NCBI GenBank assembly: GCA_963663235.2
Contig: CAXXNO010000004.1
Coordinates: 256,001-320,000 of the forward strand
DNA length: 64,000 nt
Direction of reading: 5' to 3'
DNA from: Dehalococcoidia bacterium
GTDB taxonomy: Bacteria > Chloroflexota > Dehalococcoidia > Bin125
Positions 50,402-59,120 of the stretch are shown here, piece after piece. Made by a program: the position numbers and the translations under genes. Numbering within the stretch: position 1 is the stretch's first letter; every line of letters begins with the position of its first letter. The notes beneath the pieces are model-generated. The model did no database searches. It was not told the DNA's origin and saw nothing but the letters and a program-made list of their open reading frames with translations.

Positions 50402-50445
50402 TGTCGTTCGTCTCCTTGTCCACTCCTTGGGCCCAGACGAATGTA

Positions 50446-51996: not shown

Positions 51997-53097
51997 CTAG
52001 GCCGGCGCCGCCACGGCGCCCTCGTGGAAGGGCGAGCCGCAGAAGGCTTCGTAGTCGATGAGCTCGGTCACCGTCGGGTTGTCGCCGCAGATGGGGCAGT
52101 CGGGGTCGCGACGGATGTTGACGGTGCGGAACTCCATGACCAGGGCGTCGTAGAGCAAGAGGCGGTTCTGCAAGGGCTCGCCGACGCCCAAGATCAGCTT
52201 GATCGCCTCCGTGGCCTGGACGGTGCCGATGGTGCCGGGCAAGACGCCCAGCACGCCGGCCTCGGCGCAGGACGGCACCATGCCCGGCGGCGGCGGGCTG
52301 GGGTAGAGGCAGCGGTAGCACCCTTCCCCGGGGATGAAGGTGGTGACCTGCCCCTCGAAGAGGAAGATGCTGCCGTCCACCAACGGCTTGCGCGCGAAAT
52401 AGGCGGCGTCGTTCACCAAGTAGCGGGTGGCGAAGTTATCCGCGCCGTTGATGATGATGTCGTAGTTGGGGATCACCGCCATGGCGTTCTCGGAGGTGAG
52501 CGGGGCCTGGTGCTTGATCACCGTCACGTTGGGGTTCAGATCAGCGATGTGATCGGCGGCTGAATCAACCTTGGGACGCCCGATGTCGCGAGTGCTGTGC
52601 ACGATCTGGCGTTGGAGATTGCTGAGGTCGACGGTGTCGAAATCGACGATGCCGATGGTGCCCACGCCCGCGGCGGCCAGGTAGACGAGCACGGGCGAGC
52701 CGAGCCCCCCCGCGCCGATGGCCAGCACCTTGGCGCCCTTCAGCTTGCGCTGCCCGAGGGGGCCGACCTGGTCCATGATCAGATGGCGGCTGTAGCGATC
52801 GACCTCATCCGGCGTCATCACCGAGCCGCCGGCGATGACCGGGATCAGGGAGAGTTCGTCCCCGTCCTGCACGGGCGTCTCGGCCCCGTTCAGGGCCGAG
52901 ATCTCCTGAGCGTTGACGTAGACGTTGATGCCCTCGGGGATATTGTGATCCGCGTCAAACAGCATCTCCCCAAGGTTGGGGAACTGGTGTTGCAGATCCC
53001 GGAAGACGCCGACCACGTCGGCGCCGTCCGCATCAACGAAGGCCCGGCTGTCCGTGAGGCTCCGGAACGACGTGGGAATATATACCTTCACCGCCAT
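51997..53097 (-). CDS. Ubl-E1 fusion: N-terminal MoaD/CysO-like domain fused to a MoeB/ThiF adenylyltransferase
   Basis: MAVKVYIP...INVYVN...IPVIAGG then RYSRH, GAGGLG, SNLQRQ, CYRC, SCAEAGV, CPIC; no C-terminal rhodanese. Confidence 0.9.
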   Translation of the reverse strand: MAVKVYIPTSFRSLTDSRAFVDADGADVVGVFRDLQHQFPNLGEMLFDADHNIPEGINVYVNAQEISALNGAETPVQDGDELSLIPVIAGGSVMTPDEVDRYSRHLIMDQVGPLGQRKLKGAKVLAIGAGGLGSPVLVYLAAAGVGTIGIVDFDTVDLSNLQRQIVHSTRDIGRPKVDSAADHIADLNPNVTVIKHQAPLTSENAMAVIPNYDIIINGADNFATRYLVNDAAYFARKPLVDGSIFLFEGQVTTFIPGEGCYRCLYPSPPPPGMVPSCAEAGVLGVLPGTIGTVQATEAIKLILGVGEPLQNRLLLYDALVMEFRTVNIRRDPDCPICGDNPTVTELIDYEAFCGSPFHEGAVAAPA

Positions 53098-53558
53098 GCC
53101 ACTGCTCCCTCCCGACCACGCGGCATCCCTACAGGCGGCCGCGTGTCGCGTCGCCGGTCCGCCGCCGCCGATCCCTCCGCCGCCAGGTCCGCGATGGTCC
53201 GGGCGCCCAGCACGTCCAGGATGGCGGCGCGGACCTCGTCCCATATGGCGCGCTGACCGCAATGCGGCGGCCGTGCGCGGTCATCGTCCGGGCAGATTGA
53301 ACCCTCCAGGCTGAGGACCACGTCGTCAAGCCGGATCGCGTCGGCGGCGCGGGCCAGTTCGTGGCCGCCCTGCGCCCCCCGCACCGATCGCACGAAGCCC
53401 GCGGCCCCCAGGAGGCCCAAGATCTGCCCGACCAACGACTCCGGGATTCGCTGGCGGGCGGAGATCTCGGCGCTGGGGATCGGGCCGCGGCCGTCGTGCT
53501 GGGCCAGGTCCACGAGGGCGCGGATGCCGTAGTCGGCCTTGGAGGAGAGCTTGAACAT
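53088..53558 (-). CDS. Rrf2 family regulator (CymR-like)
   Basis: MFKLSSKADYGIRAL, VRSVRGAQGG, TIADLA. Confidence 0.9.
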   Translation of the reverse strand: MFKLSSKADYGIRALVDLAQHDGRGPIPSAEISARQRIPESLVGQILGLLGAAGFVRSVRGAQGGHELARAADAIRLDDVVLSLEGSICPDDDRARPPHCGQRAIWDEVRAAILDVLGARTIADLAAEGSAAADRRRDTRPPVGMPRGREGAVAWR

Positions 53559-53807
53559 CGGAGTCCTTGCCGGGGCCTGCCCGCCGCGCAGATGCGCGAT
53601 TGAATGTGGACCAGAATGGTAGCATTTCGGGCCCGCGCCTCGACAGCGGGGGACGGCCCGGACTGACAAGCGCGGCACACTGGCATCAGCGCTCGCGGCG
53701 CGCGCATGTGGGGGCGCCGCAGGGCGGACCGCGGCCCTCCCCGCATGGAGAGCGCCCCCCGGTCCGGCCTACGGTGGATGGGAGGCCGGACGCCGGTCCT
53801 CGACGCC

Positions 53808-54597
53808 ATGGAACTAACGCCACTCCACGAGCCAAGCTCAACGTCGGCAGCCGCCCCAGGTGGGAGCGGCGCGATCTCGCAAGATTCCGCGCAGCAGTTC
53901 GTGACCCTCTTGCGTGCGCAAATGGACGGCATGATGGCCGCCGCCGCGTTCGGCGGCCTGGGCGGGAGCGGCCAGGGTGGCGGCGGCATGGGGCTGTTTG
54001 GCGGCGGCGGCATGGGGATGTTTCGGCGGCGGCAGCGCGGGGCTGGGTGGCGGCGGCGGCATGGACAGCCTGCTGCTGATGCAGACGCTGGCGCCGCTGA
54101 CCGAGGCCCTCACGCGGATCGTCGATCGTCTGGACGCGATGGGGGGTGGCGGATGGGGCGGCGCGTCCGGCCCGGTGAGCCCGATTGCCACGCCGGGATA
54201 GCTGCCATACCGCGATCTGATCGAACGGCTGGGGCAGCTGTATAACGTCCCGGCCGCCTTCCTGGGCGCGGTCATGATGGCCGAGAGCGGCGGCAATGCG
54301 GCCGCCGTGGGCGACGAGGGGCACTCCGTGGGCCTCTTCCAGCTGCACGACGCCGGCATGGGACGAGGCCTGGGCGATCTGCGGCTGGACCCGGAACTCA
54401 GCGCGGCGATTGGGGCGCGGGGGCTGGCCGCGGGCTGGCACGAGGGGCTGCGGCGCGGACTGACGGGCGAGGAGCTGGCGCGCTTCGCCTACGACTACCG
54501 CTTCAATCCCGGCGGCGGGGACGGCTACCAGAGCGACTCCGTGATGTCCCACTTCCGCTTCTACGAGAACCTGGCCGAGCGCGACACGATAGCCTAG
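53808..54597 (+). pseudogene. Lytic transglycosylase (SLT domain) with a Gly-rich linker; +1 frameshift at ~54022 and in-frame TAG at 54199
   Basis: Reading through both lesions gives MELTP...QQFVTLLRAQM...G-rich...PG*LPYRDLIERLGQLYNVPAAFLGAVMMAESGGN...GLFQL. Confidence 0.75.
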
Positions 54598-54881
54598 CGG
54601 CGGCGGTCCGGCGACGCGGGGGTCCCGCTCAAGGCGCGGGCCATTGCGGTGCGGAGCCCGCCCTCGTCGATCGGGGCCTGCGCGACCTCGTGATCTCCCA
54701 GCGCGATGACCGGAACGCGAGCGCCGAAGCGCGACGCCAAGGCCGGGTCCGCATCGACGTCGACGGCCTGCCAGCGGAAGGCGAAGTCCGCGGCCAGCCG
54801 GTCGAGCATGCCGGCGGCCTCCTCGCAGAGGTGTCAGTCGTGGCGGGTGTAGAGCGTGACCGGCGGCTGATCGGGCGGCAT
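54594..54881 (-). CDS. Glutaredoxin-like (DUF836/NrdH-like) probable selenoprotein with a UxxC motif
   Basis: MPPDQPPVTLYTRHD-TGA-HLCEEAAGML...ARVPVI; TGA (54836-54834) at the first Cys of the family CHLC motif; hairpin just downstream. Confidence 0.8.
54792..54819 (-). promoter_or_regulatory. Candidate bacterial SECIS stem-loop
   Basis: GGCC-GCCGG / loop CAUGCUCGA / CCGGC-U-GGCC starting 14 nt after the UGA. Confidence 0.5.
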
Positions 54882-54889
54882 GGGATCCG

Positions 54890-55894
54890 TCAGCGGCGGC
54901 GCTTGCGACGGACGCGCACGCGCTTGGGGGGGCCGGCGCTCAGCCCAGGCAACCGGGCGGCGCGCGCCGCGGGCGTCGGCGGTTGGGCGGGCGGCTTCGT
55001 CATCTCGGCGACCTTGGCGATGCGCTGCTGGGGATGCCGGAAGAGGTACCAGGCCATCCAGGCCGCCGCGGCGCCGGTGAGGATGGCGAGCAACTGGGGC
55101 ACCGAGAGCGCGCCGCCGATGGTCTGCTCATCCGTGCGCAGGAGGGCCAGGAGGCCGCGCACGGCACCGTAGGCGACGACGTAAAACAGGAAGCTCCAGC
55201 CGGGCAGCACGCGCGTGCGCCGCAGGTACAGCAAGACGCCGAGGATCATGAGATCGAGGATCGGCTCATAGCCGCCGGCCACGGGATGGACAGGGACGGG
55301 GGCCTCGGCGAGGGCACCGGTCTGGCCCCGGTCCCATGTGTTGGAGGCGGGGACGATCCCGTCGGCGATGGAGGCCCAGGGGCCTTCCGTCTGCGGATGG
55401 GTATAGCGGAAGGCCCAGGGCAACCCGCTGGCCTCGGCGAAGTGCTCGCCGTTCATCAGATCGCCGAAGCGCCCGACCGCCTGACCCAGGATCATCCCCG
55501 GGGCGGCGATGTCCAGGGCCATGAACTTGGGGAACTGCCGACGGAAGAGGAGGATGTAGATCATCCCGCCGACCACGCCGGCGATCATCGCGCCGTAGAC
55601 GGAGATGCCGCCGTCCGTCACGCGGAAGATGTCGCCCAAGCTATCGATCCGGTCGGTGTGCTCCAGGACCCACAGGGCCCGCGCGCCGACGATCCCGGAC
55701 GGGACCGCCACGAGCGCGACGTTGAACACATCGTCCTCGGTGAAGCCCTTGCCGCGCGCCAGCCGAAACGAGAGCCAGACGCCGAGCGCGATGCCGACGG
55801 CCGTGAAGAGGCCGTGCCAGGTCACCGAGAAACCGCCCCGGGTGATGTTGGGGTCGATGTTGATGTCGATCGCGGCGACGAGGTCGAGGATCAT
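54890..55894 (-). CDS. lgt: Prolipoprotein diacylglyceryl transferase
   Basis: WHG, VGARA, GQAVGRFGDLMNGE, VHP...YE. Confidence 0.88.
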   Translation of the reverse strand: MILDLVAAIDINIDPNITRGGFSVTWHGLFTAVGIALGVWLSFRLARGKGFTEDDVFNVALVAVPSGIVGARALWVLEHTDRIDSLGDIFRVTDGGISVYGAMIAGVVGGMIYILLFRRQFPKFMALDIAAPGMILGQAVGRFGDLMNGEHFAEASGLPWAFRYTHPQTEGPWASIADGIVPASNTWDRGQTGALAEAPVPVHPVAGGYEPILDLMILGVLLYLRRTRVLPGWSFLFYVVAYGAVRGLLALLRTDEQTIGGALSVPQLLAILTGAAAAWMAWYLFRHPQQRIAKVAEMTKPPAQPPTPAARAARLPGLSAGPPKRVRVRRKRRR

Positions 55895-58044
55895 TCCTCG
55901 CTCCAGCCGTCGTCGACGTCCTCGACATCGCGCGCGCCGGCTTCTCGCGCGTAGCGGGCCAACTCGCGCCGCAGGTTGACGGTGTGGCCGGCGAGGCCGG
56001 CCAGGTAGGTGCGCTCCGGCGTGATCCGGGCCCAGACGCGGCGCCGGGGCACGAAGAAGGTAATCGACAGGCCAACGATGCCCAGGACGATGGCGACCCA
56101 GAAGATGTTCGCGCCGGGGTCGCGGCGAACGGTCAGGCCGGTGAACTCGCGCGAGCCCAGGAACGTGTACTCGTGGTCGCCGAGCGTCACGGACTCCCCT
56201 TCGTCAAGGTCGATGCGGGGCAGCCCCCCGCCGAGGCCGAGGCCGAGGCGGGCGGGGCGCGCGGCATCGCTGCCGGTGCTGCCGGCGGTCGTGTCGGCGC
56301 GCGCGAGCTCCACGTTGTCCCCCTTGCGCGCGTCGAAGGTCTCGGCCGTGCGGCCCTGACCAAAGCGCTCCAGAAGGACGAGGGCCTCGCCCTCGGCGCC
56401 CGGGATCTTCGGCTCGATGCGGTAGTACACCGGCTCCGCGCCGAGGTAGGTCAACCTGACCGGCCCGATGCGCTGGCTTGCCCCCGGCTCCAGCGCGCCC
56501 CGGAGCGACCGGTCCGGCTCCGCCCCCACGTATTCCAGGATGACCGCGTCCAGCGTTACGCGGCCGCCCGGTTGCAGCAATCCCCGCTGCGATTCGTCCG
56601 CGGCGTTGAAGTAAAAGAACTGGCGCCCGCTGCGCGTATCGTCGAAGCCGACGGCCAGCGTTTCGCCCTGGGCGAGCGGGATGAAGCCAAGCCGCGCCTG
56701 CGCGCGCTCGTCGAGCGAATCCTCGCTCAGGGTGATCACATCGTCGGCGAGGAGGGCGCCGCCGGCGGCGGCGTAGAGCCGGACGCGAGGCGCGGGGGGC
56801 GGCGGGTCATTGAGCCGCAGGGCGGCGGCGGCGAGCGGGGGCGCGACGGCCGCGTCATCGGCCGGGAGCGGGAGCACGCTGTAGGAGAATTGCAGCTCCC
56901 CGGCGGGATCCGTCGCCAGGATCAGCGCCAGGCTGCGGTCGGAGCCGAGCGGGATCAGCTGATAGCCGCTGTCCGGAACGTCCGCGATCCCCTGCAAGAG
57001 TTGGATCACCTCCTCCGCGACGAGCGCGCCCGTCTGCGTGTTGGTGATACGGACGCGCGGACCGACGAACTGCTCGTCGAGCATGAGGGTCTCGGAGTAG
57101 AGCAGTTGCCCGCTGCCGGCGTCGCGGACCTGCAAGGCGGCGCCGTGTTCCCAGTAGGCCGCCTGGTGCACGCGATACCCCGCCGCGCTCAGGGGCCCGT
57201 TCACGGTGACATCGCCGACGACGAGCTCCTCGCCGGCGCGGGTCACGCGCACGCGACTGCGGAAGTCCAGCGCTCGCCCTTCGTCGTCGAAGCGGGCGAC
57301 GGCGTCGTCCACGATGACTTGGATCTGTTGCCGGTCGCCGGCGGTGGCGAAGAGCGGGTGGCTCTGGCCCTCGCCCACCCAGAACTGGAACTCCTCGCCC
57401 CCGAACTTGGTCAGCAACGTTCCCAGCACCAACACCAGCAGCGCCAGGTGCGACGCGAAGGTGGCGAACTGCGCCCAGGCGAAGCGGTCGGCGAAGAGGT
57501 AGCGGCCTCCCTCCCCGTCCTCGCCGCGGACGGAGAAGTGGTGGCGGCGCAGCACGGCTTCCAGCGCGCCGGCGTTCGCGGGCGTGGCGAAATCGAAGCG
57601 GTGGCGGGCGCGCTCGAAGTAGGCGTCGTTGACGCGGCGCTGCGGGCGGCGCGCGAAGCGATAGATGGGCGGGAAGCGGCTGACGGTGCAGACCGTGATA
57701 GACAGGGCCACCAGCGCCACCAAGGCATACCAGTACGGCTGGCTGAACAGATTGAAGAATCCGCCGTGGGTGTCATAGAACCAAGGGAACTCGGCGAGGA
57801 CGTCGGTGAAGGGGCCCCAGGTGCCGCGCTGGTCGTCGATGAACTGGCCGACGGCCGTCTGCTCGCCGGCCAACTGCGGCGGCACCTGGGGGATGATCAC
57901 GGCGGCGAGCGAGAACAAGGCCACGACGGCGATCAACCCGATGGCGAAGCGCACCGAGGTCAGTTTGCGCCAAACCCAGTAGACAGGGTCCGGTAGCTCC
58001 GTCGCGCGTGGCCCTCGCTGCGCCGGGCGTTCCGCAGTCGTCAT
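55891..58044 (-). CDS. Cytochrome c biogenesis protein ResB/Ccs1 with an enlarged extracytoplasmic domain
   Basis: LTSVRFAI...IIPQ, conserved His (ASHLALL), TVNGPL, TGLTVRRDPG, RRRVW. Confidence 0.87.
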   Translation of the reverse strand: MTTAERPAQRGPRATELPDPVYWVWRKLTSVRFAIGLIAVVALFSLAAVIIPQVPPQLAGEQTAVGQFIDDQRGTWGPFTDVLAEFPWFYDTHGGFFNLFSQPYWYALVALVALSITVCTVSRFPPIYRFARRPQRRVNDAYFERARHRFDFATPANAGALEAVLRRHHFSVRGEDGEGGRYLFADRFAWAQFATFASHLALLVLVLGTLLTKFGGEEFQFWVGEGQSHPLFATAGDRQQIQVIVDDAVARFDDEGRALDFRSRVRVTRAGEELVVGDVTVNGPLSAAGYRVHQAAYWEHGAALQVRDAGSGQLLYSETLMLDEQFVGPRVRITNTQTGALVAEEVIQLLQGIADVPDSGYQLIPLGSDRSLALILATDPAGELQFSYSVLPLPADDAAVAPPLAAAALRLNDPPPPAPRVRLYAAAGGALLADDVITLSEDSLDERAQARLGFIPLAQGETLAVGFDDTRSGRQFFYFNAADESQRGLLQPGGRVTLDAVILEYVGAEPDRSLRGALEPGASQRIGPVRLTYLGAEPVYYRIEPKIPGAEGEALVLLERFGQGRTAETFDARKGDNVELARADTTAGSTGSDAARPARLGLGLGGGLPRIDLDEGESVTLGDHEYTFLGSREFTGLTVRRDPGANIFWVAIVLGIVGLSITFFVPRRRVWARITPERTYLAGLAGHTVNLRRELARYAREAGARDVEDVDDGWSEE

Positions 58045-58194
58045 CGTCGTCAGTCCAGCGCCCGCGTCCGCTTCGCGCCCCGGGGCCGATCCACGGTACG
58101 CGCGGGGCCGTGCCGGACGCACCCAGGCGCGGCCAGGGCTCAGCGTACCCGCTCACACGGGCTCGCGTCGGCTACGGAGCCGGCGGCACGACGA

Positions 58195-59120
58195 TCACGG
58201 AGCCGGCTCGGCGAGGCCGAAGGCCTCCAGATAGAGCCGACGGGCGTCGAACGGATCGAGGCCGTCGCCCAGGAACGCGTCACCCACGCGGATCTCGAAG
58301 TGCAGGTGGTACTCCGAGCCCGGATCCGACACGCTCGCCGGCGTACCGGACTCGCCGATGAAGGCGACGATCTGCCCGACGTCGACCGGCTGCCCCACCT
58401 CGATCCCCTCGCAGCGATCGCGCTGAGATGCGCGAAGCGAGTCATCACCCCGCCGCCGTGGTCGATCCAGACCTGCCGGCCGCGAAAGAGATCCAGCCAC
58501 TCCGCACCCTGAAAGCCGGCGGCCTCCGCCGCGGCGAATTGGTCGGCGGTGAGGTTTTGATAGCCATAGTCGGCGCGGACCACGACGCCTCCCTTGGCGG
58601 CGAGCACGGCCGTACCGAACGAGGCCGGTGCGCAACTGGCCCACTCGTAGAAGTCGAGCCCTTCGTGCGTGCCGTTGCGGTAGGCGCGTTCGGCGCCCGG
58701 GAGGTGTCCCTCGAACTCGGAGATGCAGACGTCCACCAGCGGGAGGGCGAAGCCGGTCAGCACCGGCGCGACGGCGACCGGCTCGACAGCGATGGGCTCG
58801 ACAGGGGCGGGCTCGCTGGGGATGGGGGCCTCCGGCACGTCCGGCGACGGGCTCTGGGCGGCCGGCTCAGCCTCGGCCGCCGGTAGTGGCGGGTCCGTGC
58901 CGGGTAACTCGGGGGACGCCGCCGTTGTGGCCGGCGCGGGGGAGGGGGCGGCGCCCTCGGCGCCGTCGTCATCGCCGCCCCGGAGGCCGAAGGCTAGGCC
59001 GACCGCGAGCGCGAAGGTCGCGGCCGCCAGGCCGATCCAGAGGAGCGGGGAGCCGGGCAGCCACGTCACAGACGACGGCGGGGCCGCGATGGGGGGATCG
59101 ATCTTGGGCGGCTCCGGCAC
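58195..59120 (-). CDS. Membrane-anchored M23 peptidase with a 1-bp frameshift at ~58411 (error or pseudogene)
   Basis: TM helix, HEGLD, FAHL in one frame; GESG...HLHFEIR in the adjacent frame. Confidence 0.85.

Follow-up and report, generated by a model that had tools for sequence, protein, structure and literature searches.

The window, that is, the whole 64,000-nt stretch of DNA analysed here, carries on its minus strand a small glutaredoxin-like gene whose frame contains a TGA at the position of a redox cysteine. The gene lies directly behind lgt and a resB/ccsB-type gene and faces a convergent gene on the plus strand. The features of the locus are as follows.

54594..54881, minus strand: DUF836/glutaredoxin-like ORF with the TGA read as U, 95 codons plus TAG (PF05768, E 1.3e-15)
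54834..54836, minus strand: in-frame TGA, codon 16, the first Cys position of CxxC by alignment; base 54834 is polymorphic
54825..54827, minus strand: codon 19, TGC, the second Cys in U/C-H-L-C by translation
54792..54819, minus strand: bulged hairpin from folding, 10 pairs with two one-base bulges and the loop AUGCUC
54594..54809, minus strand: leftover 71-aa ORF of the ORF list (P0002), lacking CxxC, with its ATG inside the hairpin loop
54890..55894, minus strand: lgt (prolipoprotein diacylglyceryl transferase), directly upstream (PF01790, E 3.6e-45)
55891..58122, minus strand: resB/ccsB-type cytochrome c biogenesis gene, upstream of lgt (PF05140, E 6.9e-54)
54274..54597, plus strand: SLT-like gene, convergent, holding the other haplotype difference, 54532 A>G (Ser87>Gly)

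The glutaredoxin-like frame starts at ATG 54881, 8 nt past the lgt stop codon (54890-54892), and closes at TAG 54596-54594, giving 95 residues when the TGA is read as U. The ORF list, made with translation table 11, has just the 71-aa ORF at 54594-54809 for this gene. The preliminary description had recognised a 95-aa frame from ATG 54881 behind this fragment and had placed the product among the glutaredoxin-like/DUF836 CxxC proteins, and both points were confirmed. The read-through product carries the N-terminal motif VTLYTRHD-U-HLC, matching the CHLC of homologs. The PF05768 match spans the TGA, from residue 8 to residue 78 (profile positions 2-74 of 77), and reaches 57.9 bits where the cut-off is 26; PF00462 (Glutaredoxin) scores slightly below its cut-off (21.8 vs 22.9 bits). 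From the Pfam match, the protein is predicted to adopt a thioredoxin fold. In a homologous-protein search, the 71-aa fragment was known from 2 contigs, and a near-identical full-length Cys product was not found in the protein database, which is evidently without recent runs.

Lgt and the glutaredoxin-like gene are probably co-transcribed. Among 29 relatives' loci, lgt adjoins the glutaredoxin-like homolog in 25, and resB was seen beyond lgt in 16, a count limited by the length of the flanks in view. Farther upstream of resB in the window are an M23-like gene, a GatD/MurT pair and an M50 protease, and a scan of 54300-58400 for promoters and terminators found none. This arrangement suggests that the DUF836 gene is the last in a conserved resB-lgt cluster in most relatives, and that its product may serve in the cytoplasm as a thiol-redox partner in the maturation of the envelope or of cytochrome c. 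Elsewhere in the window, ThiS and ThiF domains are fused in one ORF on the minus strand (51997-53262; PF02597 at residues 60-146, PF00899 at 157-390), with an Rrf2-family regulator (53088-53678) as neighbour.

We searched 61 genomes and found a glutaredoxin-like homolog in 38 of them. No homolog was found in 10 of the 36 same-family genomes, indicating that the gene is dispensable on an evolutionary scale. The UGA had been described as standing at the attacking Cys, and the alignment agrees: the TGA lies in a column where 28 of the 29 relatives' loci have Cys. The single exception is the TGA of locus L016 from genome G032, whose protein is 49% identical to that of the window. The UGA of the window's gene is thus not conserved in orthologs or close relatives.

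The window stretch was matched by 20 runs from 8 studies, with no RNA match among the 24 runs listed, and alleles were compared over 54500-55000 in four of these runs, from four studies (X2, X8, X13 and X20). The X2 contig (depth 11.5), which was flagged as a possible source of the window, has the TGA and shows 0 differences in 501 nt. X8, X13 and X20, from three studies, each depart from the window at just 54532 (A>G) and 54834 (T>G). The latter position pairs with the A of the TGA, and its plus-strand change gives TGC (Cys) in all three. The hairpin region is the same in the TGA and TGC alleles, and runs from two studies match the TGA haplotype at each of 68 sampled words; of these runs, X2 is the one compared over 54500-55000. 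The window's allele therefore has a premature stop where an allele with 2 differences in 501 nt has a sense codon, as a nonsense allele does. A single base change can make a stop out of 16 codons of the gene, and TGA out of 4; codon 16 belongs to both sets.

The second difference bears on the direction of the change. Residue 87 of the SLT-like protein is Ser in the window and Gly in the TGC strains, and it is also Gly in 3 of 3 outgroups (L015, L016 and L079), so the window haplotype is derived at this linked site. From the derived state of that site, we infer a change from TGC to TGA, which is more parsimonious than the reverse. On the branch leading to the window, the two changes are both protein-altering, with no synonymous one.

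We assessed whether the window's genome, G000 (2.75 Mb in 14 contigs, 68% G+C, 91.9% complete), encodes the machinery for selenocysteine (Sec). All four components named in the preliminary description were found: selA (E 8.4e-134), selB (E 5.9e-20), selD (E 4.1e-107), which carries an in-frame TGA of its own, and tRNA-Sec (70.9 bits against a gathering score of 47, anticodon tca), which lies about 16 kb before the window. SelA was also present in 36 of 36 other same-family genomes and in 52 of 61 genomes overall. The preliminary description had named two observations that would speak against its selenoprotein reading, TGC in the closest homologs and a genome lacking Sec machinery. The former was found in the closest sequences, but the machinery is complete.

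G000 was then scanned for TGAs lying in frame and flanked on either side by coding signal, which yielded 114 candidates, run against Pfam in batches of 13 and 100. A Pfam domain runs across the TGA in Grx, DsbA-like, two CMD/AhpD-like, two AhpC-TSA and OsmC-like genes; in two GRDB-like genes the domain stops three residues before U, and in a rhodanese gene U lies outside the best domain stretch, though a second stretch may cover it. The conserved TGA genes of G000 number 11, selD included, giving a selenoproteome of Grx, DsbA-like, two AhpD/CMD-like, two Prx-like, rhodanese, two GrdB-like, OsmC-like and SelD proteins. Their loci in G000, all beyond the window, are:

C4:341954, C4:583472, C4:786926, C12:203049, C5:45281 and C9:76484
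C6:216245, C8:143718, C8:96270, C4:663119 and C4:~103808

For OsmC, the TGA was present in all 35 matching genomes (41 searched), and the 20 loci inspected all had it at one and the same alignment position. For the GRDB-like genes, 37 of 41 genomes gave matches, and every match listed contains one TGA, which is a count of TGAs and not a comparison of columns. Most hairpins of the G000 Sec genes have 7-8 bp and loops of GGC, GGU, GUG or AGUU, 17-34 nt past the UGA. The preliminary description had supposed a lineage-specific SECIS, but the SECIS loops of the lineage are canonical (GGC, GGU, GUG, AGUU and AGUA) and give no sign of a special type; the hairpins share little besides a stem and a G-led loop.

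A further in-frame TGA in this genome serves as a comparison for the window's gene.

G000:C12:335255-335614, plus strand: DUF1801 gene with an in-frame TGA at 335390 and a Pfam domain across the TGA

We considered this gene as a selenoprotein, since its Pfam domain spans U, and rejected it, since the column is Trp in homologs. The column of its TGA in 18 homologs has TGG (Trp) in 14 and Leu or Met in 4, and G000 alone of the 19 genomes has a stop. As judged from this alignment, the DUF1801 TGA is a plain strain-specific nonsense allele, and the case indicates that plain TGA nonsense alleles persist in G000. Aside from DUF1801, no Pfam domain interrupted by TGA at a non-Cys position was found among the 114 TGAs screened.

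Two other candidates of the scan stand apart. L092 (G000:C5:50226-50702, plus strand) has its TGA at 50406, residue 61, between an Rdx domain (SelW-like, 4-54) and a UGSC-family domain (71-159), and may represent either one fused selenoprotein gene or two neighbouring genes. L097 (G000:C12:208507-208941, minus strand) has its TGA at 208720 in PPIG-U-GGKP, with a clean GGUC-loop hairpin and no Pfam match, and is possibly an unnamed selenoprotein.

We scanned a species-level genome collection and metagenome contigs with DNA patterns for the U-H-L-C signature. In the species-level collection, 4 of 19 hits were true homologs with TGA in the column, namely a Chloroflexi MAG identical to the G032 gene and three Actinomycetota MAGs; the other 15 were chance matches (score <=64). 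Among the metagenome contigs, 9 of 25 hits were true TGA-column homologs and the other 16 were due to chance (score <=64). Counting G000, there are 11 distinct Sec forms, with mutual identities of 27-95% and frames intact past the TGA. Those outside G000 fall into the following groups.

Chloroflexota clade: L016 (G032:C46:6321-6575), L057, L065, L084 and L079
Actinomycetota MAGs and metagenome contigs: L051, L059, L061, L067/L075, L070 and L083
Two single contigs: L068 and L072

The four representatives tested are PF05768 members (E 8.5e-13 to 2.5e-19). The hairpin loops of these Sec forms outside G000 read AGUUG, (A)GGC(G), GUC or GGU at a spacing of 18-25 nt. The stem of the G032/L079 clade is closed by an Ala codon, which is GCT in the two Sec forms there and GCG or GCC in the six same-genus Cys forms. 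By alignment and predicted folds, DUF836 selenoproteins with canonical SECIS hairpins exist in two phyla, in a Chloroflexota clade and in Actinomycetota. The window's gene and four other Sec forms score below the cut-off of every NCBIfam model, so that Sec DUF836 (U-H-L-C, canonical SECIS) is unnamed by these models. The strings PF05768 and DUF836 are absent from the searched text of a 2026 review (PMC13188914), and the main text of deep-Sep (PMC12013277) does not contain glutaredoxin, Grx or DUF836. In the full-text literature, supplementary tables being outside its scope, PF05768 together with selenocysteine was not found, and DUF836 together with selenoprotein returned an unrelated title. 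Some Sec DUF836 forms also score above the PF00462 cut-off, and earlier counts of "Grx" selenoproteins may already include them.

A bulged stem-loop had been described 14 nt past the TGA, and it is present, with 10 pairs. It spans +17 to +44 counted from the U of UGA. Against dinucleotide shuffles the hairpin gave z = -0.88, with 39 of 200 shuffles folding equally well, and against synonymous-codon shuffles of the gene z was -0.08 to -0.17; the hairpin is no better than chance in 68% G+C DNA. The synonymous-shuffle test has moderate power, with 7 of 11 comparison genes reaching z <= -1.6 in at least one window of the test. Folding energy after the UGA did not differ significantly between Sec and Cys forms of the family (mean z -0.53, n=11, vs -0.37, n=28; Mann-Whitney p=0.35). 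An Rfam scan (E up to 10) found no SECIS family on the gene and none on the 11 positive-control loci either, and is therefore powerless here.

Since folding energy separates Sec and Cys forms poorly, we built a sharper test on the bacterial SECIS (bSECIS) model. As given in the Fig. 2A legend of PMC13188914, the model has an apical loop of 3-9 nt with a G among its first two nucleotides (mostly GG or GU), an upper stem of 4-16 bp, a distance of 16-37 nt from the UGA to this loop, and a minimum free energy of <= -7.5 kcal/mol; the same review describes a subset of bSECIS elements as departing from it. We coded the model in two simplified descriptors of our own, distinct from bSECISearch: v1 takes uninterrupted stems, and v2 takes suboptimal folds and allows bulges. 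The window's gene failed v1 strict, v1 loose, v2 strict and v2 loose, and the DUF1801 nonsense allele failed the same four. The window's hairpin has a spacing of 23-24 nt, an upper stem of 5 bp and a loop of 9 nt under the descriptor and fails solely the loop-G rule; the poor fit of its loop to the SECIS consensus, as originally described, thus holds, as neither of its first two nucleotides is G.

The 11 conserved Sec genes of G000 passed v1 in 8 (strict) and 9 (loose) cases and v2 in 9 and 10, and the 10 other Sec forms of the family passed v1 in 9 and 9 cases and v2 in 8 and 8. Among the 28 Cys forms of the family, 0 passed v1 strict and 3 passed v1 loose. Background Cys codons in G000 coding regions passed v1 at 5.5% strict and 12.5% loose (n=3000), and v2 at 12.7% strict and 29.5% loose (n=600). 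At least one descriptor version was passed by 10 of the 11 conserved G000 Sec genes and by 10 of the 10 other family Sec forms; GrdB-b is the sole gene of these 21 verified Sec genes to fail both versions. Overall, about 95% of verified Sec genes pass the test and 70-94% of ordinary Cys codons fail it. Under the SECIS model, the window's gene behaves like a Cys form, and by the reads it was one until recently.

We compared the window's gene with known systems. A Sec-containing glutaredoxin (Grx, PF00462, UxxC) is tabulated among the selenoproteins in PMC13188914. Sec-Grx resembles the window's protein in being a small Trx-fold protein with an N-terminal U/C-x-x-C after a beta strand, and the window's gene likewise has UGA in place of the attacking Cys and widespread Cys homologs. 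Unlike Sec-Grx, the window's protein belongs to PF05768, its gene has no SECIS that fits the model, and Cys is found in the sibling strains. The Sec DUF836 forms share with the window's copy the Pfam family, the U-H-L-C motif and the alignment column. However, they keep the TGA over 27-95% identity and have canonical hairpins, whereas the window's copy has neither, and the stem-closing GCT Ala codon of the G032/L079 Sec forms is missing from it. The UXX-star families (NF041212, NF041114 and NF047338) also have a Grx-like fold with Sec near the N-terminus, but they end soon after U-x-x, whereas the window's protein has U-x-x-C followed by about 75 residues; it scored 17.2 bits against NF041212, whose cut-off is 66, and so falls outside that family. 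The DUF1801 allele (G000:C12:335390) is like the window's in being a strain-only TGA in an intact, domain-bearing gene with no SECIS-model hairpin. The DUF1801 TGA falls on a conserved Trp codon, whereas that of the window falls on a redox Cys, and hence only the latter looks like a selenoprotein gene.

The TGA of the window is probably a nonsense allele that arose recently by TGC>TGA. An ordinary Cys-type DUF836 glutaredoxin-like thiol-disulfide oxidoreductase would close the resB-lgt-glutaredoxin-like cluster, and the lineage of this strain would recently have gained a single C>A change that turned the active-site TGC into TGA. With no SECIS of the kind present in the organism's other Sec genes, translation would most likely end after 15 residues, and at best a 71-aa product without CxxC might be re-initiated from the next ATG. 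Sec is presumably not inserted at codon 16, and the window's copy would be a null or nearly null allele that resembles a selenoprotein gene. The claim that this copy is a selenoprotein was not supported, since the siblings have TGC and the hairpin fails the bSECIS model. Several observations nevertheless count against a nonsense allele: the TGA falls exactly on the attacking Cys; the organism is Sec-rich, with 11 conserved TGA genes; at least 10 further distinct sequences of the family have TGA at this position of the alignment; a stable hairpin lies at an allowed distance; GrdB-b, a conserved Sec gene, likewise fails both descriptors; and, DUF1801 apart, no non-Cys TGA interrupts a Pfam domain among the 114 TGAs. 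Selection weakens the argument from coincidence, because a gene with TGA at a redox Cys is just the kind that gets picked out.

The observations might also be read as a nascent or non-canonical selenoprotein, in which the TGA is decoded as Sec, perhaps inefficiently, through a pre-existing hairpin, so that the product would be a U-H-L-C enzyme and the species would have an intraspecific Sec/Cys polymorphism. The complete Sec machinery, the placing of the TGA exactly at the attacking Cys, the proneness of the family to Sec forms and the hairpin at an allowed distance all fit such a gene, as does the full match of the TGA haplotype (68 of 68 sampled words) in runs from two studies. That a conserved Sec gene can fail the descriptor is seen from GrdB-b, and PMC13188914 describes a Cys-to-Sec origin of thiol oxidoreductase selenoproteins and some bSECIS elements that are off the model. 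We regard decoding of this kind as unlikely, given that the loop has no G in its first two positions, unlike all but one verified Sec gene, that the hairpin is identical in the Cys strains and hence shows no adaptation, that synonymous codon choice carries no folding signal, and that the second strain-only TGA in G000 is plainly nonsense. An established selenoprotein with a lineage-specific SECIS, in which Sec is the normal conserved state, would account for the TGA at the Cys column, the downstream hairpin and the presence of Sec machinery. It is very unlikely: 3 of the 4 compared runs have TGC, which largely refutes it, the window haplotype is derived at the linked site, and the SECIS elements of the lineage are canonical.

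In E. coli, termination at UGA is weak when the next base is C. The window's TGA has this UGA-C context and an intact downstream frame, so a leaky stop, with low-level read-through by a near-cognate tRNA (Trp or Cys) giving some full-length protein without Sec, of weak or no activity, can be envisaged; it has no specific support in the data, Trp at the attacking position would inactivate the enzyme, and we consider it highly improbable. An error of sequencing or assembly, or a consensus of mixed strains, might be suspected in a 14-contig assembly that is 91.9% complete and comes from a population polymorphic at the TGA base. It is extremely unlikely, because the X2 contig of an independent assembler (depth 11.5) agrees with the window at all 501 nt, TGA included, and runs of two studies match all sampled words.

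These results carry a lesson of method. The standard SECIS-independent signature of a selenoprotein is fully present at this locus and is still most likely misleading; a comparison at the strain level, together with a SECIS check calibrated on the genome's own Sec genes, was needed to expose this. If the TGA were decoded after all, the gene would be a selenoprotein caught at its birth, with the UGA arriving before a canonical SECIS, and would offer a natural test of the order of these events; the G032/L079 sister clade would then represent the finished state, in which a synonymous GCG>GCT change closes the AGUUG-loop SECIS. The window's gene is most likely an ordinary nonsense allele. Its TGC and TGA forms, otherwise identical, are a natural allele pair that could be used to test Sec insertion by a non-canonical hairpin, and the pair bears on how Cys-to-Sec conversions start.
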